From Schmidtea polychroa (taxonomy: Eukaryota), in the NCBI GenBank assembly GCA_044892525.1, contig CM097885.1, positions 35,962,001-36,026,000 of the forward strand: a stretch of 64,000 nucleotides of DNA, given 5' to 3'. A program made the position numbers and the translations under genes. The notes under the pieces are model-generated. The model was not told where the DNA came from and did not search any database. It saw only the letters and a list, made by a program, of their open reading frames with translations. Position 1 is the first letter of the stretch. Each line of letters starts with the position of its first letter. This document shows, piece after piece, positions 710 through 42,846 of the stretch.

Positions 710-828
710 TTTAAAACTATAGTGTATATTTGTTTACAGAATGTCTTTGTTAAATTTTTTGTATTAGTATAGAAAATAAGTGAAAAACAAATATGACTAA
801 ATACATTTATTAAATACATCATCATTTA

Positions 829-2504: not shown

Positions 2505-2858
2505 TTCAGATATTATTAGTATGTATAATGATAGCCAAACTGGCGGTGAATTACCATATTTCGTTGGTAAACAGTACGGATCAGGTTGGTTAAAAACAAT
2601 AAGGAGATTTGCATTACTTATTCTTAAACGTATTGGTAGTTTTGGCATGAAAACTGCTAAAAACGTGATTATGAATGAACAGAAAATATTACCATCTCTA
2701 AAAACAAATGCTTTGGCTGAGTTAGGGAAGGTTCTACCTGGAGTTGCTGGTATGTTTCAAAAGATACGCTTTCAGCCCCAGCTCCAAAACGTAAAGGACA
2801 TGGAAAATCGCGTATAAATAAACGAATGAAAGGACATGGAACTATATTTGCTAAATGG
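2497..2858 (+). pseudogene. Core protein (QxGG/QYGSG family), frameshifted near the C-terminus
   Basis: Homologous to 36700-37071. Confidence 0.85.
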
Positions 2859-3171
2859 TTTGTGGTAAATCCGAATTATGTATATTTGATAGACCATCGC
2901 CTCAAGCGGTAATCGAATTTGGGGCCTTTGAGGAAGTTTTTCCTATGAATTCACTTACTGATAGTAGAAATGATATCGAGTTTATATTAATGGTTCGCAA
3001 ACTGAATATTTAGATTTGAACGATACTTTATTGACTGTTCAGATCAAGGTTGTAGATAAAGATAAAAAGGTTTTGGATGCCAATGCTGATGTATTGCCGA
3101 ACAATTTCATGTTTCATACTTTTTTTAAAGATGCAGTGTTGGGATTTAATAATATCAAGATTGAGGGTGAT

Positions 3172-3175
<4 letters not shown>
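2855..3175 (+). pseudogene. Major capsid protein N-terminal fragment
   Basis: MVCGKSELCIFDRPSPQAVIEFGAFEEVFPMNS matches the intact MCP; there is a frameshift and the gene is truncated at the (AAT)n tract. Confidence 0.9.
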
Positions 3176-3625
<450 letters not shown>

Positions 3626-3629
3626 ATAA

Positions 3630-6600: not shown

Positions 6601-6687
6601 TCATCAGAAGCTGTCTCAGCAAATGATCCAGATGATTTCCATGATCCAGCAGATGATAATTATTTTGGACATGATTATTTTCGATGA
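3630..6687 (+). pseudogene. Protein-primed DNA polymerase B pseudogene
   Basis: Fragments carry VRDHDHFTG, GIRGGLTFV, INNLYGWALS, KLLNNSL, YIGQTVLDLSK, GKFKD and DDKR, with many frameshifts, deletions and a local duplication near 4750-5060. Confidence 0.92.
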
Positions 6688-6901
6688 TGTGGTTAAATTA
6701 TTTAATAAATGTATTGATTTTATTGCCTTGCATATTTTTAGCAGTACCTTTGTGAACAATTTTTTACATGTATTTTTTTATACATTGTATATGTGTGTGT
6801 AATAATATGTTAAAGTTTTGCCTTGAATATTTTTAGCAGTACCTTTGTGAGCAGTACCCATAGGGGGACAGAATATCTTGTCGGATAAACTCGGAGTATA
6901 C

Positions 6902-11291
<4,390 letters not shown>

Positions 11292-11929
11292 TCTTTCGCG
11301 CGGGGGTTAATATCTTAAGATAATAATGATATTTATATATCATTAGATAGATCTTGCACTAGAATTTAAGATGAGCTATTGTATAATAAAATCGGATGAT
11401 GGGAACACTAACTTGTTGCATGACCAAAACCATGTGCCCGCTAGAACACTAATAATATTTTCAAAAATAATAATAATTTAACTTTGAAAAAGATGCTGGT
11501 CCTCAATTATTAATATCTTTAAAAGTAATAATGATAATAAATATATCTATAGCTCATTGAAAGGGTCTTGCAGTGGGGTTTAAAATGAGCCAACAGACAA
11601 TATAATATAATGATAGGAACACTAACATTTTGCATGATCAAAACCATGTGCCTGCTAGAACACTAAATAATATTTTTTATACATTGTGTGTGTGTGTGTA
11701 ATAATATGTTAAAGTTTTGCCTTGAATATTTTTAGCAGTACCTTTGTGAGCAGTACCTTTGTGGCCATTACCCTTAGGGGGTCAGAATATCTTGTCGGAT
11801 AAACTCAGACTATATATGATAATAATAATAATGCAAAGTATTTGCAAAGTATGTGCAATAATTTTATTCTGTCAACTTTAGCGTCAAAATAAGTTTTTAA
11901 AATATATTTAAAAAGTATGATGAGTCATA

Positions 11930-13547
11930 TGTCTTTGTTACATAATAGTCCTTTGTTTAAATTTATGTCTTTGTTAAATTGTCTTTGTTGCTTAATATGT
12001 CTTTATTATGTAATATGACTTTGTTATGTAATATGTTTTTGTTACGTTATATGTAAGTGTTGTGTAATATGTCTTTGTTATGTAATATGTCTTTGTTGTG
12101 TAAAATGTCTTTGTTTAAATGTCTACGACTTAACCATCTAATTTTGGTATAATAAATAAGATCTTCATATTTGTGGTCGAGTTCATTAAGTAATTCTTGA
12201 AATTGGCGATGCTTTAATGAATTATTTTTAATTGCATTAATTACCATAACAACAACTGAAATTATATGAGGCATATTTAAAACTTGTGCACATAGATTCT
12301 CAAGATGCAAAAAACTATGGCAAATAAACATTTCAAAATCATTTGAACTTTCCTCCAAAATTTTTTTTTTATGCTCAAGAATTAAATTAACAGCACTAAT
12401 TTTTTTCTAACCATTGAGGGTGCCCCATCTGTCGTGATTCTAACAAGATTTTTTAAATCTATTTGCCGAATTTCGATGCAATTTATGACTGCCTCTTTTA
12501 TATCTCTTCCGGTGGTGGTATTTTTTTAAACTTATAAGATCAAGCAATTCTTCTGTAACATTTATTTCACTAGCAACACCCCTTATAAAAATAGAAAGCT
12601 GTGCAGTATCGTTAATATCAGTTGCTTCATCCAAAGCCAGTGAGAAATAAATGAAACCTTTTTCAATTGTATTGAGCAATACCGAAATATCCGTAGAGAT
12701 ATCAGCTATTCTTCTTACTAACGATTGATGAGAGAGATTTATTTGGGCAAAATATTTAACTTTTTCTGGACATATTTCTTCGATCGCGGCAATAAGACAC
12801 TCTTTTATGTAAGCACCGTCTGAAAATGGTTTCATTTTCTTGGCAATAATGTGAGATATTCGAAAGCTAGCACATACAATGCCGTTTGATGGTGAAATTT
12901 GCTCGTTGTTGCTTTTTGTTGCGCTTTTACATTTTTCTTTAAGAGATGTAACTTGGGTTTTCGTTATTCAATATTAAGTTCATCAATGTCGCCATGCTTT
13001 TGTTTGAAATGTCTTTTCAAATTATAAGATTTTAAAATTGAAATAGAACCGTGGCAGATTAAACATACAGCTGTTTCTTTTATCTGATAGAAAAAAGACA
13101 AATCTTCCCATTCAATTTGGAAAATTCTGTTCTCATCTTCAAGCTTTCTTTTTTTTCAACTCTTCTTCCAGTCATGACTAACTATTTTACGAAAAAAATA
13201 TTAAAAAATATTAATACAATTGATTTTTTAAAAAATTAATAAAATAAAAAATCTCTAACAATTATTAATTTAATTTATCTAAAATAAAATATTTTGAACT
13301 ATTATGACCAAAGTATAACAAAGTATAATAAAATATAACTACAAGTTTTATATTTGAATGGTATTATTTTCCAATAAAATCTTATGAGAAATATATAATA
13401 GGAAAATTTAAATTTGCTAAACTGGTTTTTTTATTTAATGAATTTTTAAATATAAAATATAAAAAGTAAAAAAAAAACTTCAAGTGGGCCGCAAAATTTT
13501 TTAATTGTGCCGCTTGCGGCCCGCGGGCCGCAGGTTGACCGCCCCTG
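11930..13547 (-). mobile_element. hAT transposon (SPIN/GTF2IRD2-like), 3'-truncated, transposase pseudogene
   Basis: 5' terminus CAGGGGCGGTCAACCTGCGGCCCGCGGGCCGC at 13547; fragments AVCLIC..YNLKRHF, KPFSDG.YIKECL, SLALDEATDINDTAQLSIFIRGV, TDGAP and IRWLSR. The distal end decays into a ~18-21 bp tandem repeat. Confidence 0.85.
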
Positions 13548-24163: not shown

Positions 24164-25369
24164 TTTTTAAGTGTCTCTCCCATTTAAATCAAGAATTAGA
24201 ATTATTACAAAGCCGATTTTCCTATTTTGTTAAAATGCACGCAATTGTAAATATCTATCTCAAAATAAAACTTCCTGAATTGAGAAAAGTAATGTTTGAC
24301 TAAGAATTCCGATTTGTATAAACTTGTCATATTGGGGACGAATATCTTGAAAATTGTCTCACTTATACCGAGACATATAGAGAAAAGTATACAGATGTTA
24401 AATGTGCTGTGGGTTGTTGTTGATCGTTGGACAGATGAGAACGAATTTCTTTTAAAATATTGTTTAAATATTGTGCATTTATTTATTTATCGACATTTCT
24501 AACTAAATAAATTAAATTGATAGATGTCGTGAAAAGTTTTTGAACTTAAGAACTTAATTAATGGAACATTTCTTTAATCTGTCTCGTCTAATGTGGATTG
24601 CAGAAGCAGAAACCGATGCCTAATTAGTGGGAGGGGGTTAGTGAGTTTGGACCTTTTGTGAGTAATACATATCCAAATTTTTCTTTACATTTATTTACGA
24701 GTGACTCGAGTCAATCTAGAAAACTGTCACAATGTTTTACGTTTGAAGATTCACTGAGTTTGGTCATTTATGGTTGAAAAGATTTCGTCAATTTCAGTTC
24801 TTTTCCACTAATGTTTGTATTTTTTTTTAATTACATGCAAATTTTAATATTTTAGAAAATTATATCTATTTTTTTATTTATTACTATTATTATTATTAAT
24901 TTTAATTATATTTAATTTGTTTTAATAATATGATATAAAACATTATTTCAAAATTTAAATATTTCAGTAATTTTGTTTAATTGCACTAAAACTGTTCACA
25001 TTTAAATCAATACAAAAAATTGATTTTTATTAGTAATTATTTTATTTTGAAGACAATTATTGAACATGAAAAGTTTTATCAATTTCTTTTTTTTGATTCT
25101 TTTTATTATATAAACTATTAAATTAAATTGAATCGCTTTAATGAGACATGGAACATGGGTGAATAAATATAAATATTCTAGAATTTAAAATTATATAATT
25201 AAAACAATAAAATGTACTCATAAGAATAAGTACTTTTGTTTAAATTCGCCATATTACAATCCGTTGATATGTTATTTTTTGGTATTAAATCTGGAATTAT
25301 CTAGACATTCAAAACTCGTTTTAATTTAAATTCAAAATTTTACAAAACTTCTGTGTAAGTGAATGTTTA

Positions 25370-26408
25370 AGTAGATGGATTGGGCACCGCTGGCACAGGG
25401 CACCGCTAGCACAGTACCCCCCCCCCCGTCGGTAAGATTTTCAAAAATATTCTAAGTCTAAAAGTACATTTTTTTTTCAAGGTCAAATTTAAACAAAGAC
25501 ATATGACTCATCAAGGTCATTGAAACAAAGACCATGAGTCATCCTATGACTCATAAAATTTTTCAAGGTCATTTAAACAAAGACCATGACTCATCCGATG
25601 ACCCATCAAGGTCATTTTCAAGGTCATATGACTCATAATATGACTCATCAAGGTCAAAAAAAATTTCTCAAGGTCATTTAAACAAAGACCATGACTCATC
25701 AAGGTCATTTTCAAGGTCGTATGACTCATAGTATGACTCATTTGACCTTGAAAATTTTTTTTCAAGGTCATATGACTCATCCTATGACTCACCAAGGCCA
25801 TTGAAACAAAGACCATGACTCATAGTATGACTCATTTGACCTTGAAAAATTTTTTTCAAGGTCATATGACTCATCCTATGACTCATCAAGGTCATTGAAA
25901 CAAAGACCATGACTCATAGTATGACTCATTTGACCTTGAAAAATTTTTTTCAAAGTCATATGACTCATCCTATGACTCATCAAGGTCATTTTCAAGGTCA
26001 TATGACTCATAGTATGACTCATTCGACCTTGAAAAATTTTTCCCAAGGTCATATGACTCATCCTATGACTCATCAAGGTCATTCTCAAGGTCATATGACT
26101 CATCCGATGACTCATCAAAATTTTCAAGGTCATTTTCAAGGTCATCTGAGTCATCCTATGACTCATCAAGGTCATTTTCAAGGTCACGTGACTCATCCAA
26201 GGTCATTCCCAAGGTCATATGAGTCATCGCGATGACTCATCAAGGTCATATTATTATTTTTAAAAATATTATTATTTTTATTATTATTATTTTTAAAAAT
26301 ATTATTATTTTTAATTTTTTCAAAGTTCCCGCCAACGAAAATTAATAATCGATAGCTCATTTTAAAGCTCAATCCAAGACCTTTCGAATGAGCTATATAT
26401 CTTGTTAC

Positions 26409-26505
<97 letters not shown>

Positions 26506-26667
26506 CTATATACTCCGAGTCTATATACTCCTAGTCTATCCGACAAAATATTTTGTCCCCCTATGGGTAATGCTCACAAGGGTACTGGTCACGCTCAACA
26601 AATCAACAAAACATACATTTATTTAAACAATAAAATAATGTAAAATTAACAAAGGTAAACTAAATAT
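25370..26667 (+). repeat. Left TIR (~1.3 kb) with an internal TGACTCAT/TCAAGGTCA array and (ATT)n
   Basis: Reverse complement of 43926-45106 apart from repeat-unit copy number and a few substitutions. Confidence 0.95.
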
Positions 26668-27294
26668 ATATAGTATGATATTCATTAATCAGTGTTGAAC
26701 AGGCTTGACACTTGCGAACATTCTTCTCATGACACTTAGAACAAACAATTACGTGACCACACGGTAAATACAAAACCGAAACTCGATTTTCTTTACAAAT
26801 TGAACAAGTTAAATATCTTTTCTTAACATCTTTCAATTTTTTCGTTAGCTTATTTTCAATCAAATCGGCTTTCGCTATCCATTCATAAATCAATCTACTA
26901 TATCCCTGTTTCAACCTTAAAAACATACAACTCCAAAAGTATTCATTCAGTGAATCGTTGTTTACTGCTATTTTTTCTAAGTACATTAAATAACAAGATA
27001 ACTTTAAAATGGATTTCTCATAATTAAATAAATCAAACAAATATTCAATAGAGGAATGTTTGAAAATTTTTAAAATATTTATGAGTTGCTTATCACTGTA
27101 AGTATCATGATTATTTATAAAATCTTCAAGTGTATTGTTAAAAAATGTCAATGAAATTTCAGAATAGGCTGGACTTAATTTTTCCTTATTTCTAGTAGGA
27201 CTTCCTTGCTATAAATGACATATAAAAAAAATTGGCAAAATAATAAAGTTACCAAATGTGTTACACATTCATCGGTTTTATTTGTATAAATCAT
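26660..27294 (-). CDS. IAP/MDM2-type C3HC4 RING finger protein, putative E3 ligase; exons 27294-27253 and 27208-26660; ~196 aa
   Basis: CSICKENRVSVLYLPCGHVIVCSKC...KCQAC; a 44-nt GT-AG intron joins an upstream ATG exon in frame; CCAAT and TATA lie upstream. Confidence 0.85.
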
Positions 27295-27461
27295 TATTAA
27301 TAACTAAATTACTTTTGTTTTTACATTTATAAAAATTGTGATAACCAATCAAAATAGAGCTTTCAAAATGTAACCATCAAATGTATAACAATAATAAGCA
27401 TGACTAGTACCCTTTGCAACCTGTTTAAAGTTTTATTATTATTATTATTATTATTATTAAT

Positions 27462-27581
<120 letters not shown>

Positions 27582-27607
27582 ATTATTATTATTAATATTA
27601 TTTCATT

Positions 27608-27830
27608 GATATAGCTGCAGACTATATATAAAAATATAGCTGCATGCCCACTGCAGACTATATATAAAAATATAGCTGCATGCCCACTGCAGACTATATA
27701 TAAAAAATATAGCTGCATGCCCACTGCAGACTATATATAAAAAAAATATAGCTACATGCCCACTGCAGACTATATATAAAAAACATATAGCTGCATGCTC
27801 ACTGCAGACTATATATAAAAAACATATAAA
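27608..27830. repeat. ~33-bp tandem repeat (atagctgcatgcccactgcagactatatataaaaa)
   Basis: About 6 units, one of them partial; the core is shared with the 32.4-33.1 kb array. Confidence 0.9.
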
Positions 27831-28053
27831 AGTCACCATTAAATACTTATAAAATAAACTTAAAAATTATAATAAAACAAACTTAAAAATTCGAAAAATA
27901 TCTGATTACAAAATTTTATTGAATATATACAAATTTTAAATCAATATATTAATACAAGTTTTTATACATTTTTTTTTATAAATCAAAATAAAAAGTTTTT
28001 TTCAATATATACAAGTTTTTTGATCAAAAGTTTCTGTACAATTCTGAGTTGCC

Positions 28054-31000
28054 CTATTGATCTTCGTCCCATTCGCTGTCGTCAAAACTGGGACTTGGAG
28101 CTGCACTGAATTCCTCATCATATTCGCTTAATTCGTCAACTCCTAAATAATGCCCAAATGCGTAACTTAAGTTTTTTCCTAGCCACGCGCGCTTATCATC
28201 ATTATTACTTAGGGCAATTTTCGAATTTTTAAAAGTAAAAAGTTGGTGATTTCTAGTACCTATTCTAGTCTGCGGTACAGAAATCACCTGATTTGAATGA
28301 AAGCAATTTAGATATGATTCGTGATTTATTGATGTCCCTGGTAATTTAACCCCTTTCGCTTTTACCGTTTCCTTACTACCTAAAAGACTATAACATTTAG
28401 GGCGTAAGAAAACCCATTCAGAATACCCTAATCCCTTGCTCTCATCTTTAAACTTCCCGATGACCGAGTCAAGGTTCCTACTATACAAGGGGTGGGTTGG
28501 ATCGTAATTTGACGTATCCAATAAATTATCAGAGATCATCTGAGGTAATAAAGTTGTTAATTTTAAATTTTTTATTTCCAAAAAGAAACTGTCGGTATCA
28601 CCGGCAATAATATTTATGATACATTTATATTGGCGTCTGTACTTCTCCAAATCAATATATTGGAGCTGGTACATCCGCAGTTTAGACAGATCTAGTACTG
28701 TTTGACCAATGTAGCTAGGTCTGTCTAAACAAATCACATCTTTTTCCAAATGTGCCGCAATCAGATCTTGATCGATTCTTATGGACTTTCTGAAAGTCGG
28801 CTTTGAGGAGTATACTATCATCTTTTCGGATGAATTACACAACCTCAAATTCATTCTTTTTTTCAAATTTTCAACCGATTTACCGTAAAGAGAGTTATTA
28901 TACAATTTAAACAAGTCCCTATATATCTCGCTAGTAGACTGAGATCGTAAAGTGGTGTTGGTGTCTATGTAGGATTTAAAGATAGGTCCTTGTTTAAACT
29001 TTATACACCTATGAATATTTACAACAACCGCACCTAATTCTATATACAATTTGAGAAGCCTCCAATGAAGAACATAGTTCCTCTTTGGCCAATGCGTAAG
29101 CATAAGCTTCTCAACTTTTGAATTAGGCGGGCACAACTTTTCCGGCGCAAGCGGAAAATCATTCAAAAAGTCATGCACACATTCCGGAATATCGATATCG
29201 ACCTCCATAGTATACCCATATGGAAGGTTATCAATATCCGTGTTCATACATTCAAGTAAAACATCATTCAAGTTATTATTCACCCAAGAAAAATCACCAT
29301 ACGGAAGATTTTGGCTAAGAGCCCAACCATACAGATTATTTATATCAATGTACAATAATTCTGTATCATCTGAAGTAGCCGTGTAATGTTTGTTAACAAA
29401 TGTTAACCCACCCCGGATACCTCCCTCATAGAAATTATACATTTCCATGTCCTGCAGAAGTTCTATTGGTTCCGTTAATGTCATAAGCGCTGAGGCCCAT
29501 GACATACCGGGAATCCCGTAGAAATTAAGAGGATCCAGACCATTGTAAGCAATTGCCTTACCGCGGAATTGCTGAAAATAATCTGCGAGGAGGTATACGT
29601 CCAATTTTAGGTAGATTAACATATAATCTAACAAATTATTACAGTTATGCTGACTCCAAATTAGTTGAGCCTCAGCGTACTGATCTTCCGTAACATCAGA
29701 CCAAATAGGAGGTAATTCTAAAGTCGATTCAAGAACATCTAAAGAAGTAGCGAAATTATATGGAAAGATACCTTTAGAGTGAATCATCGACCCTTGAAAG
29801 ACAGACGAAGTCAAAGGAAAAGTAGTTAAGGTTTTCACAGCTTTTGCTAAAGAACAATTAACAAATTGCATGCTGTCAATAAAACGAACAGGCAATTTGT
29901 TAATATATGCAATTAAAGATATAAATTTTTCTGTAGAGGTAGGTATAATATTAAGTTCCCAAAGGGGAAAATCACTGAGACCATGTTTTAAAATATGGTG
30001 GAGGTCATAGCCTCGTAAATTATGAAAGACAACAGGTAACAATTTATTAATCCTGCGAGAGACATTGCATTTCCTACATGCCGCTCCGACATATCTACCT
30101 GTAAAATGGCAATGATCTCTCACAGGATTAATAATAGATTTTTTACACAAATAACAAATAGTGGAAGATCGAAAGGCACGCTCCTGAGCAAAAGACAAAG
30201 TAGACATACCTTTACGACCTTCAAGATCATAATATGGCAGGACAATTGTGACAGCAATTTCCTCCACTTTCCTCAAAAAATCCAAAATACAATTAGGTCC
30301 AAAAAAATAATAATAAAATTTAGTGTGTGTATAATTATTAATTAATAAAAGACCTGCTGATATGGGTAAATGTATTTGATGATATGTTTCATGTTCTGGT
30401 AAAACCGATTCAAAATCGGCATAAATTACGAAGGGAGGTGTAACTGTTTTTGCGTAATCTGTGAATAATAAATCTTTATTTTTAGGAAGTGTATACAAAG
30501 TTGTGCCAGTCTGATTTTTACAGCATAGAGCAACATGCTGATCGAAAGCATTCTTATATCTAAAGCCATTTAAACAATGTGGGCACCAGTTACACCTTAT
30601 TTGAACATTTACATTTTCATTTTCATGACAATTCATTAATTTGTCCAAGTCTGTCACGGCTGTATAATGATATTTATCTTTATTACTCAAAAGTAATAAA
30701 TAAATTGGTCTACCGTCTATAACCTTGGAGCGATGTACTATATTAAGATGAGGGTGGTGAGCTACATAATCCTCAGAAATATCTAAATCAGAACTGGCTG
30801 GATTATAAGACAGAACGTTTATGCTCAAGTTTAAATCTCTATTTTTTCTTTCAAATTTGGGAATGTTGCATAGCCTCATCGGGCAATCAGTGTCTTCGTC
30901 ATAATTTAATAGAGGTAAAAATTCTATATATTTGGCGGCTCTTTGGTGATTACGACCTATTTCTTCTCTTTTTAAAAGTGCAAGAATGCTATACAAGAAG

Positions 31001-32357
31001 CACTTATGGTCGTTGTTTTTAACGTTAATTATTGCATGTTTTAATTTTAAAGCCGATGGGGTTTTTATATAGCTATGTCCGGATAATCTACTAACGGGTG
31101 CGTATTTCGTTAAAATAAAATCTATTTCTAAAATATTCACTACTCGCCACCCGCTTCCTAAATAGGTGAATTGCTCAATCTTTTCATTTAATTTGCTCAC
31201 CCCCTCGTTTATAAAGTTTGATGTAAAAACTTGAGCATTGTTTGAAAAATAATTATCCCGGATCTCCCCATCTTTTTCAAATTTAATTAAAATTGTGAAT
31301 TGTATTTTTACATTGCCCATCTTTTCTATTTCCTCTATTAATCTATCTTCAATTTTTGATGTTAGGGCTATTTTAACCAGGTTTTCATTTCTTATATTAA
31401 ATTTTAATGTTTTACGTGATCCATTCAAATCGGATTCAACAACTGGTTCAAACAAAGAGCCGCCTATTTGAAATATGTTGAAAGACGTTGAAGCTACACA
31501 TTCATCATTGATGACTATCACTTCTTGTTGTGTAATGGGTGATTGTTGTGTAATGGGTGCTTGTTGTGTAAACGATGTTGAAGCTACACATTCATCTTTG
31601 CTGATGACTATCACTTCAGGTCGCGATAATTTATTAGGAATGCAATTTTTAATTAAACCAGCAGGTCTTTTAATAGAATCTTTTTTAATATTTATAATAT
31701 CTTTTTTAATAATATTTATAGTATCTTTTTTAATAGCATCTTTTTTAATAGAATCTGTTTTTTCTTTTATAATATTTTTTTTAATATTTTTTAAATCTTT
31801 TTTAATATCTATTTTTATATCTTTTTTAATAGTATTTTTTGGTAAATTTTTTTGTAATTTTTTATTTATTTTTTTAAATAAAACATTTTTTGATATCGAA
31901 AATTGCCCTAAGTGACAATGATGTTTATTAAAAAATTCCCTATATTTTACTTTTTCGCTCGTTACACATTTGGGGCATATAAAAAAGTTGAGCGAATTAA
32001 ACGTCTTTTTGTAGTATTTTCTCATTGTGCGATGACATTTATCGCTATGTCCATTTGCAGCTTGGCAATAATTTGGGTATAGTTTACCTGTTAAATAATA
32101 AAATTAAAGTTTTATTTTTTTTTCTAATTGTTATTAATTGTTACATCTATAAGGATTTATCATCATTTGTTATTTAATTCAAATGAACTATATAACAAAT
32201 GATGATAAATCCTTATAGAAAATAGGTTAATATATTCGAGAGAATATTAGAGAGATTTTAGTAGATAGGTCAGATTATTATATGAATATGTTAAATATTA
32301 GAGAGATTTTAGTAGATAGGTCAGATTATTATATGAATATTAGACGAGTCAGATTAA

Positions 32358-32410
<53 letters not shown>

Positions 32411-33118
32411 TGAAGAGAAGTAGCTGCATGCCCACTGCAGACTACTATGTAGCTACATGCTTACTGTAGACTACATTATTATTATTAATATTATTATTAT
32501 TATTATATTGAAGAGAAGTAGCTGCATGCCCACTGCAGACTACTATGTAGCTACATGCTTACTGTAGACTACATTATTATTATTAATATTATTAATATTA
32601 TTATTATTATTATATTGAAGAGAAGTAGCTGCATGCCCACTGCAGACTACTATGTAGCTACATGCTTACTGTAGACTACATTATTATTATTAATATTATT
32701 ATTATTATTATATTGAAGAGAAGTAGCTGCATGCCCACTGCAGACTACTATGTAGCTACATGCTTACTGTAGACTACATTATTATTATTAATATTATTAA
32801 TATTATTATTATTATATTGAAGAGAAGTAGCTGCATGCCCACTGCAGACTACTATGTAGCTACATGCTTACTGTAGACTACATTATTATTATTAATATTA
32901 TTAATATTATTATTATTATTATATTGAAGAGAAGTAGCTGCATGCCCACTGCAGACTACTATGTAGCTACATGCTTACTGTAGACTACATTATTATTATT
33001 AATATTATTAATATTATTATTATTATTATATTGAAGAGAAGTAGCTGCATGCCCACTGCAGACTACTATGTAGCTACATGCTTACTGTAGACTACATTAT
33101 TATTATTAATATTATTAA

Positions 33119-33188
<70 letters not shown>

Positions 33189-34608
33189 TTAACTATTGTA
33201 GATGCACATTGCAAACTACAAGGATTTATTTTATAACTATAATTTTGTAATCACTTTTTTAAATACTTTGATTATATTTCAAAAAACATAGTATTTTCTT
33301 CATAATTTTCGTCATATTTTCATCATAATTTTGGTCATATTTTCATCATAATTTTGGTCATAATTTTGGTCATAAATCATTTTCATTTTGTTCATAAATT
33401 TTCGTCATAATTTGGGCATAAATCATCATAATTTGGGCATAAATCATTTTCTTCATAATTTGGGCATAAATCATCATAATTTGGGCATAAATCATCATAA
33501 TTTGGGCATAAATCATCATAATTTGGGCATAAATCATAAATCATCATAATTTGGGCATAAATCATTTTCTTCATAATTTGGGCATAAATCATCATAATTT
33601 GGGCATAAATCATCATAATTTGAGCATAAATTCATAATTCATTTTCTTCATAAGTTTGATCATAAGGTTCATCAAAATATTTAAGAAATTTTCATCAAAA
33701 ATTAAAGAAATTTTCATCAAAATATTTAAAAAAAAAGTGATTACGAAATTTAAATATCAAAAATATATATAAAATAAATAAATCTTACATTCTGATTCCA
33801 TATCGGAATCTGAGTCTTCAGCAACCGAACTGAGGGTATTATCATCAATTGTTACATTTTCCATAAAATCTTCATCGATGGAATCCGAGTCTTCAGCAAC
33901 CGAACTGAGGGCATTATCATCAATTGTTACATTTTCCATAATTTCTTCTTCATCGATGTCGACATTGAAATTAAACGCTAAAAAATAAAATTTTTAAAAA
34001 TAAATTACTAAAGTAAATAAATTTACTTTTTTCTTTGATAACCTTGGTTTGCCCAACATCAATAACTGGGGCATCCGATTGTCCAAGAAAAATAATATCT
34101 TCATCACTATTTTCATTAACATTTTCTGTAATGCAAATTAATTTAATAAAAATTAAAATAAATTTACTTTTTTCTTTGAAAACATAGTTGTGCCCAACAT
34201 CATTAACTGGGGCATCCGATTGTCCAAGAAAAATAATATCTTCATCACTATTTTCATTAACATTTTCTGTAATGCAAATTAATTTAATAAAAATTAAAAT
34301 AAATTTACTTTTTTCTTTGAAAACATAGTTGTGCCCAACATCATTAACTGGGGCATCCGATTGTCCAAGAAAAATAATATCTTCATCACTATTTTCATTA
34401 ACATTTTCTGTAATGCAAATTAATTTAATAAAAATTAAAATATTAAATTTACCAAATATATTTTCCACATTTAAAATGGCATCGTTTTCTGTAACTTCGT
34501 ACCAGTCGAATGGTTCTAAAATAAAATATAATAAAAATCGAATAAAAATAATAATAATTTACCGTTAGTCAAAAGACTTCTCAATACTCGATTCTTGTTG
34601 GTTTCCAT
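28054..34608 (-). CDS. Protein-primed DNA polymerase B polyprotein. Main exon 32087-28054; predicted upstream exons 34608-34563, 34515-34453, 34407-34309, 34266-34168, 34125-34027 and 33977-33789; ~1540 aa
   Basis: Exonuclease motifs YADFES and FHNLRGYD; polymerase motifs DINNLYG, KLYNNSLYGK and GDTDS; OTU-like NDHKCF..HY; endonuclease VII-like CYLC..VRDHCH..CRKCN. All six predicted introns are GT-AG and phase 1. The main ORF is secure; the leader exons are predicted. Confidence 0.9.
32405..33190. repeat. Seven ~100-bp tandem units with a constant GC-richer core and variable ATT spacers
   Basis: tattgaagagaagtagctgcatgcccactgcagactactatgtagctacatgcttactgtagactac repeated 7 times. Confidence 0.95.
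33295..33655. repeat. 21-bp tandem repeat (tcatcataatttgggcataaa)
   Basis: Seen directly in the sequence. Confidence 0.9.
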
Positions 34609-34949
34609 TGATTTCAAATAGATTTTCGAATTGATTTTCAAAATTTCAAAATAATTGTGACAAATTTTAGATTTGTCAATGTTTATAAAGAGAATGAATA
34701 TTTTCCTGTCCCAGCCAATGAGAATATAGACACACACACATATACATTGAATATTTTACTCTCTCAACCAATCACACGCATGCATGTATGTAATGTAAAT
34801 CAGTCAGAATTACATGTGACTGCCTTTGTTAGTCATGCCTTTGTTAACTTGCACTGTGCATGCCTCAGGCAAAGGCAGTCTTTATGTTACAAATAATAAT
34901 ATTTATTAGAATAATAATAAAATTAATTAAAAATAATAATATTTTTCAC

Positions 34950-34992
<43 letters not shown>

Positions 34993-35069
34993 TTAATAAT
35001 ATTAATAATAACACAACAACAAAGGAAAGGATACATTTATTAAACATCAAATTTATTAAACATTTTTCT

Positions 35070-35482
35070 TTAAACATCAAATTTTTTGTACAATAACCAA
35101 GCTAAACAATGTTGACCGCATGTTTGGGTCAAAGGATTTTGAAACATAGTTTTATTATACACAATAGGTTTTCCCATTGTTTGTAGTTTTGATATCAACA
35201 AAGCTGGGTAATAGAAACCCATCGGATCGAACACGAATATATTACCAGGTTTCACATATATAGCTATCCAATGTTCTCCACCAAGATGAGACGATTGAGT
35301 ATTGACGATTATTGCTTGATTATTGCTCAAATATGGAATTTTATCAAGAGGAAAAACTCCAACAAATTCATTTCCCAATATCTGTTTTCCGATTTTATTG
35401 ACCTGAACAGAACTATTTAAATAAATCCAGAGTATAAAAAAACAACTTACTCCATGATAACTTTTTGTGTTTCTGTATACAT
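35070..35482 (-). CDS. Adenain-like cysteine protease; 38-nt intron at 35413-35450
   Basis: GVFPLD, IVNT......GEHWIA, FDPMG and Q......CGQHC. The spliced N-terminus reads (MYTETQKVI)MDSVQVNKIGKQILG. Confidence 0.92.
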
Positions 35483-36703
35483 TTATACCAACACGGTTCT
35501 ATTTGCAGTAATTTGAACTTCATTTTCAAATACTCCATATATTATAACATGTACTGGTTCAGTAATAGCTTTGGCAAACTTTATATCCAGTCGTAAATTC
35601 CCGTTTTGTGGTAATTGACTTTGATTTAAATCAAAATCAGGGGCTAAAACAAATGTAAAAAATGGGTATTTGCTTTTAAAATCTTCTAGTGTTATTCCGC
35701 AATTCAAATTTTTATCTAAATAACCCAGATTTCTAACAATACTCTGCATATATGTCGCACAGTAATTGTCATTCTCGAAATCTTGAATATATGTTTCTCT
35801 ATAATCAGTATTTTTCGACAAAGTCAATGATGTAACACCAAAGTTTTTGAAAATTGAGCTGGACGCAGTATATGATCCATTATATTGTGCTTCACTTTGA
35901 AATGTTATCAGAATAAAATTAGGCATTCTTCTGTCACCAAATATTTGTTCTTTATAGAATGATGAAGCACCTTTAGCAATAGCAAATTGTACAATTTCCT
36001 TTGTTTTTAAGGGATAAATTGCATGTTTTGAATTAAGACCCAATTGATGACCAGCTAATACAGAGGGGTCTACTCGAACTCTTCTCACCAATAATTTTGC
36101 ATCAACTAATTGACATATTGGTGCAGTAGTTGCACTAGTAAGAGATAATGCAGAATCAGACCTTTTCAATCTAATATGTACATTAACTCCCGGTAGTAAA
36201 TATTTCGGTTGATCCATAAAATCAAGTTGTAATGATGAGCACATGGTGAAAACCTTTGAGCCTTTTACCCACTTTTTTCTTTCATCATCACTGCCATAAC
36301 CCATAGGAGTAAGACATGTATTTTTAGTATCGGAATTGTAATTTAAAATAGTTTCTATTAATGCCTTGTGAATGAATGTATTATTTCCGCCCTCAATCTT
36401 GATATTATTAAATCCCAACACTACATCTTTAAAAAGAGTATGAAACAGGAAATTGTTCGGTATTACATCTGCATTGGCATCCAAAACTTTTCTATCTTTA
36501 TCTACAACCTTAATCTGAACAGTCAATAAAGTATCGTTCAAATCTAAATATTCGGTTTGTGAACCGTTAATATAAAACTCGATATCATTTCTACTATCTG
36601 TAATTGAATTCATAGGAAAAACTTCCTCAAATGCCCCAAATTCTATTACAGCCTGGGGCGATGGTCTATCAAATATACATAATTCAGATTTACCACAAAT
36701 CAT
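35483..36703 (-). CDS. Double jelly-roll major capsid protein
   Basis: 406 aa with Polinton MCP motifs KSELCIF..P, IEF.I.G...YLDL..T.L, NNFLFHTLF, Q.KYLLPGV and GNLRLDIKF. Confidence 0.93.
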   Translation of the reverse strand: MICGKSELCIFDRPSPQAVIEFGAFEEVFPMNSITDSRNDIEFYINGSQTEYLDLNDTLLTVQIKVVDKDRKVLDANADVIPNNFLFHTLFKDVVLGFNNIKIEGGNNTFIHKALIETILNYNSDTKNTCLTPMGYGSDDERKKWVKGSKVFTMCSSLQLDFMDQPKYLLPGVNVHIRLKRSDSALSLTSATTAPICQLVDAKLLVRRVRVDPSVLAGHQLGLNSKHAIYPLKTKEIVQFAIAKGASSFYKEQIFGDRRMPNFILITFQSEAQYNGSYTASSSIFKNFGVTSLTLSKNTDYRETYIQDFENDNYCATYMQSIVRNLGYLDKNLNCGITLEDFKSKYPFFTFVLAPDFDLNQSQLPQNGNLRLDIKFAKAITEPVHVIIYGVFENEVQITANRTVLV

Positions 36704-37071
36704 TTTGCAAATATAGTTCCATGTCCTTTCATTCGTTTGTTTATACGTGATATTCCATGTCTTTTACGTTTTGGAGCATGAGCTGGAGCTGGTGCTGGAG
36801 CTGGTTTTTGAAACATACCTGCAACCCCGGGTAAAACTTTCCCTAATTCTGCTAAAGCATTTGTTTTTAGAGATGGTAATATTTTCTGTTCATTCATAAT
36901 AACATCTTTTGCAGTTTTCATACCAAAACTACCGATACGTTTAAGAATAGGCAATGCAAATCTACCTATTGTTCTCAACCATCCTGATCCGTACTGTTTA
37001 CCAATAAAATATGGTAAATCACCACCAGATTGGCTACCACTATACATACTAATAATATCAGAATTTGCCAT
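36700..37071 (-). CDS. Virion core or membrane-active protein with protease cleavage motifs
   Basis: QSGG and QYGSG followed by the amphipathic WLRTIGRFALPILKRIG and a basic C-terminus; typical position between penton and MCP. Confidence 0.8.
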   Translation of the reverse strand: MANSDIISMYSGSQSGGDLPYFIGKQYGSGWLRTIGRFALPILKRIGSFGMKTAKDVIMNEQKILPSLKTNALAELGKVLPGVAGMFQKPAPAPAPAHAPKRKRHGISRINKRMKGHGTIFAK

Positions 37072-38131
37072 CTACTTTACGAAAATGTAATGTCAAATGA
37101 GTTTTTGAACCTTTTGGAAAGTTTATAAGTTTTCCACTATCATCACGAATATTTATTTCTATATTGTTTATACATGAACTTGCTATTGGTAAATACATGG
37201 GATTATCGATATTTATATTGACAACTTCATCATGTTCATATTTGCCAATCCATACCGATTTCAAAAGAGGAACACTGGAATCACCAACAATTATGGGTTC
37301 GATAATGTTAGTATATATGAACATTTGTTGATGATGTTCTAGTATTCTTGGTTTGCGTATACCAGTCGATTTTTCTCGATATTTTTGCTTATCTAATCCA
37401 AGTGAATTTGCCAAATTTTTATCAAATGTAACTTCGCAAATATCATCATTCAAACTGAAGGTAAACATCAAATCTTTCACAATTTCCAAATTTTTAAATA
37501 TGTGTGAACAATTGAACTTTAAATATTTAAGTAAATCATCAAGTTTATCAAAATATAATTCATCAGCAAAGGTAAATGATTCTTCAACTTTATCATTATA
37601 CGACACAGATATTTTGATTTCTTCTTTCATTACACTGTTTGCTTCAAATAGATTAAAACGTAATAAATACTCGGTCTCCGTAACAATATTTTTCAACTTA
37701 TTGCAACCCATTCGTTTGGCATCTTCAATAGTTTCGAATGTTATTGTAAATGGTTTAAAATCACAACTGATATTTAATCCATCCTTGTAAAACATATAGC
37801 AATGCGAATCTAATATTTGATTCGGAATATGATATGTTTTATCATAATTACTGATAACAAAGATACCGCTACATGTTTTCACAATATTCCTTTTGAAATC
37901 AATCTTACATTGACTATAAAATGGGAATGTGTTGTACACGAATGTAAAATCTTGCAGTGCAACTTCCCAATCCCCATTTAAAGAAATCGGATTCTGAAGA
38001 TTGACCATGAATTTACTGGCTTGATTGTCTGGATGAATTAATGGACAACTATTGCTCGGCAAAATAGTATAAAAATTCACTTTACTAGGTCTTTTGCTGA
38101 TATCCATGACGGGTTTTGATAACCATGCCAT
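37058..38131 (-). CDS. Minor capsid protein (penton)
   Basis: FY.ILPSNS....PDN..S.F.V.L..PI.L.G.WEVAL at the N-terminus and IVGD..VPLL...IEINIRD..G..I.F....LTLHFR at the C-terminus. Confidence 0.92.
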   Translation of the reverse strand: MAWLSKPVMDISKRPSKVNFYTILPSNSCPLIHPDNQASKFMVNLQNPISLNGDWEVALQDFTFVYNTFPFYSQCKIDFKRNIVKTCSGIFVISNYDKTYHIPNQILDSHCYMFYKDGLNISCDFKPFTITFETIEDAKRMGCNKLKNIVTETEYLLRFNLFEANSVMKEEIKISVSYNDKVEESFTFADELYFDKLDDLLKYLKFNCSHIFKNLEIVKDLMFTFSLNDDICEVTFDKNLANSLGLDKQKYREKSTGIRKPRILEHHQQMFIYTNIIEPIIVGDSSVPLLKSVWIGKYEHDEVVNINIDNPMYLPIASSCINNIEINIRDDSGKLINFPKGSKTHLTLHFRKVDGKF

Positions 38132-38706
38132 TTGACATAGTATTGTTTATCCTTACCGACCTTTTTAGTTTTCAATATTTTTTGAATTCTAAATACTTTT
38201 GGGGGAGGAATGACTTGTAATTCCTGCTCATAAAATTTCCCCTGTACAATATTATTATCATTGTCTTTGATGACATACATTACAGGATGCTGTTTAGTAT
38301 TTATTTTTGAAATTACAAAGACTTCATCACTCCAATTTGTATCAAAATTTTTAATAAATGGTGATGCACTAATTTTACTAATTCTAACATGGTCACCGAC
38401 TTTATATTTAGGTTTTGCAATTTTTACAGATTTTTTAGATAATGATGTTTTTGATGTAATATCAACCGGTCTCAATCCATTCAGTCCTCGATGTGATGAA
38501 TGATTATAACTTGTTATTATTTTCGGTAAAGCATTTACCCATTTTTTATTACCTTGATGCACGAACAATTTCTTTAATCGATCTCTCAATGTTCGATTAA
38601 ATCTTTCAACATGGGCAGCTTTGTATTGAGAATGTACCGAGTAGTGATTTATTTTCAGTTTATCGAGGATTTGCTTAACTTTGCTATTGTAGAATTCTTT
38701 ACCTAA

Positions 38707-38783
<77 letters not shown>

Positions 38784-39171
38784 CTAAATCTGTTTGCAAA
38801 TTATTAGGATGTCCATCTTTAAATAAAATATTAATTGCCTTGGACATTTCTTCTGCAGATTTTGCCTTGACTGGTATTGCTCGTGCAAACCTGCTGTATA
38901 CATTAATACATGTTAAAATATATTTATTCCCATTGTTAATTTTCGAATATGGTATCATCTCCATCAAATCCATTTGCCATAAATCGTCAATACCAAATGT
39001 TTTATACGCTCTTGTTGGAAATCTTTTCCGCATTGGTTTGTTCAAACTGTACGCAAGCTGATCTGATAACCACTTCTGGGTTTCTTTTTTCGAATTCGGA
39101 ACTCTTTTGTTTAATTTTGCCACTCCACCGAAACCGGCTTCGTCTTCTGGGTTCGTCCAAATCTTCTCCAT
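38077..39171 (-). CDS. Retroviral-like DDE integrase with C-terminal chromodomain; 81-nt intron at 38703-38783
   Basis: WQMDL, QTDLG|KEF, VERFNRTL, YKVGDHVRIS and the chromodomain YYVKWHGY..PSWI. Confidence 0.95.
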
Positions 39172-39229
39172 TACAACAAGAAGATTTAAAATTAAATTTA
39201 ATGTCGGGCAATGAAGGATTAGCACCCAT
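39002..39229 (-). CDS. Overprinted small ORF with N-myristoylation consensus and a CC motif
   Basis: MGANPS (G2, S6), FKSSCC and basic RRRSR; its ATG sits 3 nt after the stop of the upstream gene. Confidence 0.55.
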   Translation of the reverse strand: MGANPSLPDIKFNFKSSCCNGEDLDEPRRRSRFRWSGKIKQKSSEFEKRNPEVVIRSACVQFEQTNAEKISNKSV

Positions 39230-39232
39230 TGT

Positions 39233-39766
39233 TTATGATTGATTTCCTACAACTCCACCTAATAATGATAATGCCAGAGGTATCAAGGCACCAATAAATC
39301 CACCTTGTTGTTTATATATAATTTTCCTCATTTGCTTACGATTTTTATTATTTACTAAAGATAATAAAGGTTTCCTATGTTTGCTCAATAAATGCTTTTT
39401 TGATTTACTGATTTTAATTTTGCCTTTGACTACTTTAAGTATAATATTGAGTAAATCATCGACAACAAAATTTGGGAATGATTGCAATATATTCATTCTT
39501 TTCATACTCGGAGCCTTTAACAATGCATTAAAAAATGGAAAACTGCGATGATTTTTAACTACTTTTTTACCGGTTTTACGGGTTTTACGGGTTTTACGTT
39601 TAGGTTTAGGATTTTTCGAAATAAGATTCATTGCAGAGAAATTTTCAGTTACAAGTTTTTTAGATGGTGTATAACTAGTTGTTGGTGGAACTTTTGGAAC
39701 TTTAATAGTCTTTCTAATACCTTTTCTTAATTTCCTAATATTTTTCACCCTTGCTTTTAGAAACAT
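39233..39766 (-). CDS. Highly basic core protein with C-terminal QQGG and hydrophobic peptide
   Basis: K/R-rich; ends KQQGGFIGALIPLALSLLGGVVG, typical of Polinton core or membrane-lytic precursors. Confidence 0.8.
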   Translation of the reverse strand: MFLKARVKNIRKLRKGIRKTIKVPKVPPTTSYTPSKKLVTENFSAMNLISKNPKPKRKTRKTRKTGKKVVKNHRSFPFFNALLKAPSMKRMNILQSFPNFVVDDLLNIILKVVKGKIKISKSKKHLLSKHRKPLLSLVNNKNRKQMRKIIYKQQGGFIGALIPLALSLLGGVVGNQS

Positions 39767-39784
39767 TATTATTCATAGAGGTTT

Positions 39785-40411
39785 TCAACTTTGTTTATAA
39801 ACCATGGCACCTTTTGGGTTGAAAATATCTGTTTTTACACGTAAATCATCGGGACATTGTTGTGTGAAATCAAGAAATATATATCCATGAGGTATTTTTG
39901 TAGCATCTTGAAATGCACTGATAAGAAAATTACGATTGTTAGGGTATGCTTGACGTGCAAGAAAATCAATCACTGTTGCATCTCTAGGATTCTTGAAAAT
40001 GACTAAATACTGTACATTTAAATTACGTGTTCGATGTGCCCCACCTTGATGAAATAGATTTTGAGTTATGAAAATAACTGTTACACCGACATGTCTGCTG
40101 ATCTTTGTAAATAAATTATTAAAATCTTTTTCTTTATTAGCTTCTTGATACAAATCATCGATAATAATGACATCACCTTTCTTTAATCGGCTGGACCAGT
40201 TTTTATCGAATCCCTTTACTATTTTCATGTTTTTTAATTTACAGAAACTTGATTGAGTTAATCCATGTTCTTCATCAGCACCCCTATGCCAATAAATCCT
40301 GTTGAATTTTGATTTGAATAAATTTGATTTTAGTAATTTACAAACAAATAATGTTTTTCCACTACCACTCGGACCAACGATTTGGTATACTGCATCATTT
40401 CTTAATTCCAT
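39785..40411 (-). CDS. A32/FtsK-like DNA packaging ATPase
   Basis: Walker A GPSGSGKT, Walker B IIIDD, SRH, FITQNLF, LVIFKNPRD and HGYIFLD. Confidence 0.96.
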   Translation of the reverse strand: MELRNDAVYQIVGPSGSGKTLFVCKLLKSNLFKSKFNRIYWHRGADEEHGLTQSSFCKLKNMKIVKGFDKNWSSRLKKGDVIIIDDLYQEANKEKDFNNLFTKISRHVGVTVIFITQNLFHQGGAHRTRNLNVQYLVIFKNPRDATVIDFLARQAYPNNRNFLISAFQDATKIPHGYIFLDFTQQCPDDLRVKTDIFNPKGAMVYKQS

Positions 40412-40510
40412 TTCAAAAATTTTATATATGTATATTTGTTTATATTCGATGATTTAATGAACTCATGCTCAATTTGTATATAAAGACTAATTTTCATAAA
40501 TGATTTAATA

Positions 40511-40948
40511 ATGTTAGCAAATATAAATTATCGAGGAAATTTTGATGTATCGAATATGAGGTTCCCACCTGGGAAACCCCAGCAAATTATCGATAGAAGC
40601 GGGAAATATCCGATAATATTTTTCAAGACTGGTAAATGTCGAATCATGGGATGTAAGAAACCTTTGGATATTAATAAATTACAATATCGAATAAATAATA
40701 TTAAAATCCAATCAATTACCGTTACTATGGATATGGGACATAGTATCAATCTATATAACATGTCGAAAAAATGTGATTGTATGTTTGAACCAGAATTGTT
40801 TCCGGCACTAAGACTAATAAAATATAACCCTATATGTGTCAATGTGTTTGCTAGTGGAAAGGTTGTCATGTTGGGGTTGAGAAATTTGGAGTATAGAGAA
40901 TTTGTTGACAATGTTCGAAATGAGATAATTTCATTGGTCGATTTTTAA
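40511..40948 (+). CDS. TATA-binding-protein-like protein (divergent, 145 aa)
   Basis: IKIQSI...INL...FEPELFPAL...VNVFASGKVVMLG aligns to TBP repeat 2 (YEPELFPGL...IFVSGKVVLTG); IIFFKTGKCRIMG aligns to repeat 1. Confidence 0.85.
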   Translation: MLANINYRGNFDVSNMRFPPGKPQQIIDRSGKYPIIFFKTGKCRIMGCKKPLDINKLQYRINNIKIQSITVTMDMGHSINLYNMSKKCDCMFEPELFPALRLIKYNPICVNVFASGKVVMLGLRNLEYREFVDNVRNEIISLVDF

Positions 40949-41019
40949 TTGGTTAATTTCTAATTGGTTATTGATTGATTTAAACAAACGGTTTTTTGTT
41001 TAGAATTCATTTTTTCACT

Positions 41020-41437
41020 ATGTACAAAATACCAAGCTCTGCAACCCTCATGAAGGATATTGACGATTCCGGTAAATTTAAAATTTTTATTTTCACATTA
41101 TTTACTATTTATTATTTTAGAAAAATATATCAAAGTTATGATCAACAGGATAAAATATTATTATCCGCAAATCAATGAAATTATCAAGGATAGAGAAGCA
41201 GAAATAATTCCAGACCTCATTTTCTACACAACACAAATTAGAATAATGGAGGTATTTCACCAGTTCTTGTGGGATCTTAAGATAAACAGAAGCATCAAAC
41301 AAATGGAGCCAGAGTACCAGTGCATCATCGGATGCTCATGCTGTGCCGATCGATATCGGCGATATGTCGAATGGGAGTTAGTGAAAACTCTGCGAAGGTT
41401 TCACTACTCCCGGATTGTAGATCTTGGATATGAATAA
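41020..41437 (+). CDS. Unknown accessory protein with a CxxGCSCC motif; 49-nt intron at 41072-41120
   Basis: Splicing joins two short ORFs in frame; a homologue exists at 1470-1871; AATAAA overlaps the stop. Confidence 0.75.
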
Positions 41438-41855
41438 ATGTATTTTTGTATCTGTTGTGTTTTTTATATTTGAAATAGTAATAAATAATAGTAATAATAA
41501 TAATATTAATAATAATAATAGTAATAATAGAAATAATAATAGTAATAATAGAAATATGAATAGTAATAATAATAGAAATAATAGTAAAAAAAAACATTAA
41601 TAATAATAATGAAACACCTTATTAATAAATCTGTAAATAGAACATATAACAAAACATGTAATAATTAAAACATTAATAATAAAACACATAAATAATAAAT
41701 CTGTAAATAGAACATATAACAAAACATGTGACAATGCAACATCAATGCATTTTGAATGCAATTTTAAACAAAGACATGCTGTAATCTGATTGGTTGATAG
41801 ACATGAGTCAAAGGTATAAAAACCCTGTAACATTTCAATTTATTCATTATTCACG

Positions 41856-42266
41856 ATGACCAAGAAAATTTCAAGCACCGAAAAACCAAAAGAAATGGTA
41901 CAACCAGTTCAAATGTTCCACAACTACAAAATGTATTTTTTGAAAGAAGAAATCAATATGAAATTGGTTGCACCAGTCAAGCTAATTCCAACTAAATTCG
42001 AATTCTTATCCGGCACGCTTTCAATGATTGATGTCAAAACTATTGATGATGTTTTTAAACGGATAGATTCGAATCTATCGTGTAATCAACATGCATGGTT
42101 CAACAATAGATATGCAAGATTTTATGATGCTTTTGATGAAATCAGTTTCAAAGAAAATGAAAATTGGTATATAACAATAGCAATCCAGGGATATAAAGTT
42201 GATAATAATGATGTATATTCTCCTATTTGGAAAATTATGTCTGCTAGACTTTCACAAATATTTTAA
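41856..42266 (+). CDS. Unknown accessory protein (possible OB-fold ssDNA-binding protein)
   Basis: Conserved between the two elements; CCAAT/AP-1/TATA promoter upstream; beta-rich C-terminal pattern. The function is speculative. Confidence 0.75.
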   Translation: MTKKISSTEKPKEMVQPVQMFHNYKMYFLKEEINMKLVAPVKLIPTKFEFLSGTLSMIDVKTIDDVFKRIDSNLSCNQHAWFNNRYARFYDAFDEISFKENENWYITIAIQGYKVDNNDVYSPIWKIMSARLSQIF

Positions 42267-42392
42267 TGTTATATTTAATAAATGTATTAGTCAGATTTGT
42301 TTTTCTCTTTATTAATTGCAACATAAATGCAAATGACATGCAAATTTAACAAAGAAAATCTATAAACAAAATTATAATATAGTTTTAAAGTG

Positions 42393-42778
42393 ATGAAAAT
42401 GACTGCAGAAAAAGGTTAACATGATTAATTAATTACCGAATTATTTATTATTTAGAATTTTTAATCAACTTTTTGTTGGAAAAGTTAGCAGAAATATCTG
42501 GTGTGAAAATGGAGGATATATTATCTATTACAAATGCCTTAAATATCGGCTGGTTAGTTGAGAGTCAAGATACAGGATTTGATGATGAGGAAGAAACTCA
42601 AGAAATTGATGAGGAAGAAACACAAGAGGAAATGTATGAACCTATAGAGGAACCTATAGAGGAACCTATAGAGGAACCTAAAGATGAATCTAAAGATAAT
42701 ATTACGAATGATTGTATTGATCATGTCGTTGAAAATATAATGAAATGTGGAGATGACGACTGCGAATGTGTTAATTAA
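42393..42778 (+). CDS. Acidic small protein with Cys-rich C-terminus; 41-nt intron at 42415-42455
   Basis: The intron is conserved with the copy at 352-709; EEPI repeats; C-terminal CIDH...KCGDDDCECVN. Confidence 0.75.
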
Positions 42779-42846
42779 TAAATCTTAGTGTTTGTAAATT
42801 TATTTAAAATTTTATTTAAAAATCAAACAAAATAACTATATAAATT

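Follow-up and report, generated by a model that had tools for sequence, protein, structure and literature searches.

Enhancers such as the SV40 72-bp repeat, the HCMV major immediate-early enhancer and the repeats in the U3 region of LTRs are read by host factors, and the number and mix of their host-factor words set strength and tropism. Close to the locus reported here are the baculovirus hrs, described in the cited part of PMC13513840 as arrays of viral repeats, a few hundred bp long, in which sites for host bZIP factors cluster; they are also origins, and their enhancer strength correlates with the number of CRE/TRE words. Host transcription factor sites within terminal repeats are known from the adenovirus ITR (NFI, Oct-1, Sp1, ATF), where they have roles in replication as well as in transcription; adenovirus is a protein-primed linear DNA virus and carries these as single sites in a short ITR (PMC2685984, section cited). 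Mavericks/Polintons and adintoviruses are marked by terminal inverted repeats (TIRs), a 6-bp duplication, PolB, an rve integrase and an A32 ATPase (PMC8097293, PMC8502044), and particles of vertebrate Mavericks have not been observed according to the part of PMC8097293 cited here.

We analysed a window of 64,000 nucleotides from Schmidtea polychroa (contig CM097885.1 of assembly GCA_044892525.1) containing an element with these Maverick/Polinton hallmarks, whose size and arm length lie within the vertebrate Maverick range as given in the cited parts of PMC8097293 and PMC8502044. Both of its arms carry a dense array of words resembling AP-1, NR5-type and HMG-type sites. Judging from the sequence comparisons presented below, we consider this array to be a host-factor enhancer, hr-like and likely serving the element, at a probability of roughly 0.68.

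Results

A young, very high-copy Polinton family

The element and its parts are, in window coordinates:

25370..45106, no strand assigned: Maverick/Polinton of 19.7 kb, with matching ends, 6-bp duplication, and integrase, A32 ATPase and PolB-type ORFs
25370..26667, plus strand: left terminal inverted repeat, ~1.3 kb, aligned to the right arm
26539..26600, plus strand: inner arm block common to many sister families, used as anchor for collecting families
26660..26986, minus strand: RING-finger ORF, the first gene inside the left arm (Pfam zf-C3HC4_3, E 5.7e-10)
28054..32025, minus strand: PolB-type polymerase ORF of 1323 aa, polymerase motifs read by eye in the translation
35483..40411, minus strand: leftward gene block with putative major capsid, PZ-like, putative minor capsid, integrase, basic ORF and packaging ATPase
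40511..43970, plus strand: mostly rightward block with TBP-like ORF, small ORFs, Bcl-2-like ORF (minus strand) and a last ORF ending inside the right arm
43927..45106, minus strand: right terminal inverted repeat, ~1.18 kb, from the arm alignment

The 6-bp target duplication is identical at 25364-25369 and 45107-45112, and end pairs of other copies had matching duplications in 10 of 14-15 tried, the remainder being two unmatched pairs, two with ends not found and one without the inner block. A 30-nt degenerate pattern taken from the inner arm block matches the genome of 781 Mb exactly at 10,398 sites, its reversed control at none. The family of this element is young and very high-copy, all 150 scored ATPase matches (of 5062 candidates) being 100% identical and identity reaching 99-100% in the 40 matches scored (of 1089 candidates) for the element's first 111 bp. 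A contig of run X5, compared with 24600-25369, continues for 96 letters beyond the insertion point without matching the element, which hints at the insertion being absent in that sample.

The motifs behind the PolB-type label of the 1323-aa ORF are ones we take to be those of such polymerases; Pfam returned for this ORF a weak Endonuclease_7 match only and no PolB family match. The packaging ATPase matches Pox_A32 above the cut-off, and the integrase ORF has an rve match at E 1.1e-5 (below the curated cut-off) together with a chromo domain. Its frame (38077-39171, minus strand) contains an in-frame run of ~27 Ile codons in the core, either a microsatellite expansion or an in-frame intron. The capsid and PZ-like labels follow from ORF size and order only, the candidate capsid ORFs being without family match, and no protease was matched among the element ORFs scanned.

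The left gene block points to the left and most of the right block to the right, so that the terminal gene on each side stops at the inner border of its arm. Because the terminal genes thus point towards the arrays, these are not proximal promoters; their action would have to reach across kilobases or concern the ends themselves.

Both arms carry arrays of three words

25477..26248, plus strand: left array with 30 AP-1, 26 NR5-type and 6 HMG-type words, starting 108 bp inside the end
44321..44998, minus strand: right array with 27 AP-1, 22 NR5-type and 5 HMG-type words, one 95-bp block missing

The original prediction, made from the letters of the window, had described the left array at 25485..26250 as a mosaic of ~30 AP-1 words, mostly in the optimal form, ~25 NR5A/ERR-type words and several HMG-box-like words, mirrored at 44320-44996. 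The array exists, its bounds having to be moved to 25477 and 26248, and the hand counts proved accurate, exact search giving 30 AP-1, 25 NR5-type and 6 HMG-type words within the predicted interval. Counted over 25470-26250, 27 of the 30 AP-1 heptamers have the optimal 9-bp form and the 26 NR5-type octamers divide into 23 forward and 3 reverse. The mirror array is likewise present, at 44321-44998 and without the 95-bp block. Altogether 62 exact words lie in the left arm and 54 in the right arm; outside the arrays the window has, in 62.5 kb, 8 AP-1, 1 NR5 and 14 HMG words, the element's internal tandem repeats included.

The motif scan against shuffled controls proposed with the prediction came out in its favour: 1000 dinucleotide shuffles of the left array gave means of 0.37 AP-1, 0.07 NR5 and 0.07 HMG words and maxima of 3, 2 and 2, against the 30, 26 and 6 present, and the maxima for the right array (44320-45010) were 3, 3 and 1. 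Shuffles are a weak control for tandem arrays, as any repeated unit beats them, and the meaning of the words was therefore tested by comparing copies and families. The array is not an assembly artefact, being covered by contigs of two public runs that come from different studies (X1, X5). Two runs guessed to be RNA cover parts of the array; reading this as a sign of expression was discarded since contigs of a multi-thousand-copy repeat are uninformative on transcription. Just inside the array, at 26325-26400 and at the mirror position, we noted a block with a 10-bp inverted repeat, of which the arms of other families have 3-4 copies.

Word cores and spacing hold while unit number and spacers change

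For comparison within the family, 20 other ends were taken from the top 40 matches, 19 of which could be parsed, one being missed by the anchor. These 19 ends contain 16-57 AP-1 and 15-47 NR5 words in their first 1500 bp and share the start and the end of the array, the middle being shuffled. Spacing was analysed on 31 arrays (22,354 bp). Tandem AP-1 words have a period of 12 bp. We compared 355 anchored AP-1 pairs, ~25 of them joining in fact to an NR5 word in reverse. The middle of the spacer is free to vary at all three letters (one position has 165 C and 185 A, for example), whereas the letters completing the 9-bp palindromes hold in 348/355 and 346/355. The AP-1 centre switches between two letters, both of which we assume to be allowed at a degenerate position; inversion of the near-palindrome would give the same outcome. 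Tandem NR5 words also have a period of 12 bp (206 pairs), with spacer changes mostly between the two pyrimidines. The NR5 nonamer has variants common to copies at its first base (71 cases) and its last base (21 cases), and the modal word with these end variants fits the FTZ-F1 consensus as given in the cited part of PMC3630131. The commonest join, an AP-1 word directly abutting an NR5 word, was seen in 223 cases, and the joined 17-mer has 12,802 genome copies, its reversed control having none. Within the family, unit number and spacer letters thus change, and word cores and the 12-bp spacing hold.

A neutral minisatellite, formed by slippage and unequal exchange and resembling transcription factor sites by chance, would account for the unstable array length and the decay after insertion, the more so as the element has other internal tandem repeats and short words often match some motif. 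We regard this as quite unlikely, since three unrelated units each equal a canonical word, the cores are fixed while adjacent spacers vary, the internal repeats are nearly without these words, and in other families the words recur with other spacers or are substituted by other bZIP-type palindromes.

A hypermutable base within the words

Within the cores, variation is highest at base seven of the NR5 nonamer and base three of the AP-1 heptamer. In 33 young arrays the NR5 hotspot base was changed in 63/933 cases compared to 34/6531 (0.5%) at other core positions, and the third AP-1 base in 24/948 compared to 21/5688 (0.4%). In the window arrays and 45 other arms the half-site hotspot base mutates to all three other bases, variants are spread over many contexts, and the letter at a given unit differs from copy to copy. 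Tolerance in the consensus, considered as explanation for the seventh NR5 base, was ruled out by this recurrent mutation. Left and right arms mismatch at 31/360 hotspot sites compared to 76/3910 others in the 10 end pairs with matching target duplications. Of these pairs, one was assigned outside the array through a boundary error, two have an identical duplication, and in one case the duplication is a simple repeat.

That the trinucleotide is a hotspot throughout the host was also ruled out, with 2/1257 singleton changes in internal genes and, pointing in the same direction, 1/702 outside the arrays. As the trinucleotide is not hot elsewhere, the hotspot is restricted to the motifs. It is no evidence of selection or tolerance and is possibly a binding or modification footprint. 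Cores decay after insertion, yet the modal unit stays perfect across families.

Sister families share a vocabulary of words

A second arm in the window belongs to an older element:

11700..12140, minus strand: arm of older sister-family element, with an HMG-word and PAR/C-EBP-type array and one AP-1 word

The PolB pieces of this older element (3776-6645) are 41-61% identical to the PolB of the element at 25370-45106. Inside it, at 7660-10703, lies an inverted fragment pair with reverse-transcriptase- and GIY-YIG-like sequence, which we take to be Penelope-like.

We sampled sister families by 20 matches to this second arm and 40 of the first 100 inner-block matches; the PAR/C-EBP and CRE assignments that follow are token counts combined with reading by eye. 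The anchor is present in 19/20 second-arm matches, most of which show by eye an HMG-word array joined to a PAR/C-EBP-type palindrome, often with a CRE near the end and with 1-2 AP-1 words at the inner edge. AP-1 and HMG words with new spacers occur in L031, L033, L037 and L038, and also in L057. In the inner-block sample, 9/40 belong to the family of the element at 25370-45106. Other loci of this sample have arrays of NR5 words only, with T-rich spacers or with half-sites in 6-bp tandem (L073, L075, L077, L057), or CRE pairs (L042, L048, L049). Arrays of the D type mix canonical bZIP words with a main unit two mismatches from AP-1, which to our knowledge matches no canonical word. Several inner-block loci have no array in the 2.6 kb examined, L061 having been taken on the wrong side. 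L042 and L048 (contig C1 near 122 kb and 348 kb) have arms that close with 2-3 CRE-type words and contain as many as five copies of a further unit of 25-30 bp; in L048, the 500 bp leading to the inner block are free of AP-1 and NR5 words.

In these comparisons sister families, some with a PolB only 50-73% identical, either retain the words and change the spacers or replace words by those of PAR/C-EBP- and CRE-type bZIP factors. What recurs across families is the vocabulary and neither the spacer nor the fold; the families share ancestry and recombine, and are not independent trials. A structural role, in which the single strand displaced in replication would be folded by its palindromic units, would fit the left array, folding at -143.6 kcal/mol (z -11.4 against 20 shuffles), but in two sister-family arrays folding stays at the level of shuffles (z -1.1 and -0.9), ruling out the hairpin as a conserved property and leaving this reading hardly credible.

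A PolB match was found in 6/16 interiors (50-73% identical, partial matches down to 49%). Sorted by end type, three B/F-type loci are 50-65% and one D-type locus is 73% identical, and the putative capsid is 92-96% identical in the three interiors having one. Across L125, L132, L135, L122 and window positions 1-12140, arm type follows PolB type (41-73%), the putative capsid being 91-96% identical. The contrast between PolB and arm on the one side and capsid on the other suggests module swapping between families. Behind such arrays, at least two stretches, L123 and L126, show no element gene and no convincing ORF, and their ends lack confirmation by a target duplication. Two candidate arm pairs of gene-less elements, L044/L063 and L052/L065, were rejected and left uncounted as the inverted identity extends past the stretch examined; L044/L063 moreover includes host HMG-box repeats. 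In the viral_contigs collection, neither a match to the array pattern nor a relative of the putative capsid was found.

Candidate readers are encoded by the host

Arrays read by a protein of the element itself are known from viruses, e.g. EBNA1 on the oriP FR and LANA on terminal repeats. An array for an element-encoded protein serving replication, tethering or packaging would be in keeping with the position in the arms, with several element ORFs without assigned family and with the non-canonical D-type unit, which could be such a site. Nevertheless, none of the 14 element ORFs scanned has a bZIP, NR or HMG domain and a single protein would hardly recognise three unrelated canonical host words, making this explanation highly improbable.

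The identities of the words as transcription factor sites come from consensus matching and are to be taken as our assignment. The host genome encodes factors of the matching classes. The NR5 P-box pattern has one genome match, on contig C2 near 159.88 Mb, the product of which contains an ESCKG P-box and an FTZ-F1 box and has SF-1 and NR5A2 as best structure hits (E 1e-32). For bZIP there are 13 genome matches, two of which were compared to structures, one being Fos-like and one CREB. The HMG box has 127 genome matches, taken here without division into Sox and TCF. Nearly identical genes with two HMG boxes each are arrayed in tandem at C1:83.08-83.16 Mb (21 units) and C1:114-246 kb.

The NR5-type words are likely read by NR5 and not by ERR, because an NR5 gene is present and the shared variants fit the FTZ-F1 consensus (PMC3630131, part cited), and because ERR is reported missing from S. 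mediterranea in the cited part of PMC8363021; papers on S. mediterranea serve as the nearest guide to this host. The ERR-type reading of the monomer sites offered by the original prediction is thus unlikely. Schistosome FTZ-F1 binds SF-1-type elements (PMC8673669, in the part cited). For planarians, the cited section of PMC10558129 cautions that motifs are not experimentally verified and that motif presence alone is no sign of regulation.

Genome-wide weight of the words and neighbouring host genes

The optimal AP-1 9-mer occurs 67,878 times in the genome compared to 2,876 copies of the reversed word and ~9,700 expected arithmetically at 30% GC. Of the first 100 such 9-mers listed, 83 lie in collected Polinton ends, these 100 spanning only the first 627 kb of C1 and not being a fair sample. 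One element family may accordingly outnumber host enhancers for AP-1 and NR5 words, and its repeats could inflate or mask enrichment in motif studies of regeneration in this animal; a planarian AP-1 ATAC study was not found in our literature search.

An influence on neighbouring host genes had also been considered in the prediction. The only host-gene candidate found near this copy, at 49047-49430 (minus strand) and 3.9 kb from the right end, is a candidate neuropeptide precursor with a signal-like start and a dibasic site. Its Atlas leads at 0.87 include diuretic hormone 44/CRF, as a lead only and with no Pfam match. A scan of ten ORFs in the flanks produced no host family and a single weak hAT fragment; intron-rich host genes could have escaped it.

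Discussion

The array combines words at a density far above chance, cores kept amid changing spacers, and cognate factors encoded by the host. The reading as a dense enhancer put forward by the original prediction gains from the words being kept while spacers change, within as well as between families, and from the matching host factor classes. The coupling of activation to stress or wounding and to nuclear-receptor signalling that it added would be a further, hypothetical step; the differing word mixes of sister families and the orientation of the terminal genes had no part in that prediction.

In the model we favour, the array would recruit host factors of the Jun/Fos, FTZ-F1 and Sox/TCF types to the benefit of the element. 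Unequal exchange would shuffle the units and selection on active elements would preserve the cores. AP-1, NR5 and Sox factors open chromatin, and once bound they could open the ends of an integrated, PIWI-silenced copy and so counter silencing. Polintons of S. mediterranea are piRNA targets, repressed by PIWI, and gain H3K4me3 during differentiation (PMC8532177, in the part cited). The array might raise transcription from internal promoters kilobases away, bound factors probably also exposing the ends for excision or protein-primed replication, and the word mix might set the cell state in which each family wakes.

A purely transcriptional role leaves the arrays in front of the gene-less stretches L123 and L126 unexplained. 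Host factors could instead be bound mainly for replication or excision at the ends and not for transcription, a possibility for which the adenovirus ITR is the precedent (PMC2685984, section cited). This would agree with the array being present in both arms, 108 bp from the origin-bearing end, with arrays flanking gene-less stretches, and with arm type following PolB type while the putative capsid stays 92-96% identical. Considered as the main function it appears unlikely to us, the adenovirus sites being single, whereas 16-57 AP-1 words of free length fit dose-type enhancers better. Adenovirus helper sites are close to the end. Replication and enhancer roles may coexist.

An extension of the enhancer reading would see the AP-1, NR5, Sox, PAR/C-EBP and CRE mixes as swappable 'tropism codes' waking families in different cell states, the thousands of copies supplying most optimal AP-1 sites of the genome as a mobile library of wound-responsive enhancers or as a factor sink in a regenerating animal, and the hotspot being an inherited binding footprint; we consider this proposal as a whole doubtful. 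The readable host-factor array offers a direct test of which cells and signals activate integrated Mavericks/Polintons.

In comparison with the known systems, the array works like a baculovirus hr and is none, the 30-bp palindromes read by IE1 that define hrs being absent here. The hrs are dispersed and built on a 30-bp palindrome bound by the viral IE1 (PMC13513840, in the part cited), while the Polinton array sits in the terminal arms, is made of units of 9-12 bp words, is denser (~60 words in 770 bp) and adds NR5 and HMG words, with no viral activator of the bZIP, NR or HMG classes among the element ORFs scanned. Compared to the adenovirus ITR, it is shuffled, variable in length and placed within a 1.2-1.3 kb arm of an integrating element. 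The SV40, HCMV and LTR enhancers lie directly upstream of a promoter, whereas the nearest genes of the Polinton point towards the array. Arrays of transcription factor sites in Polinton arms were not found described in the literature searched, including the cited parts of PMC8097293, PMC8502044 and PMC10680173, with subscription journals and Repbase outside the scope. Multi-site viral enhancers and factor sites in ITRs are already known, and to these the locus would add a putative host-factor array within the arms of a Polinton.
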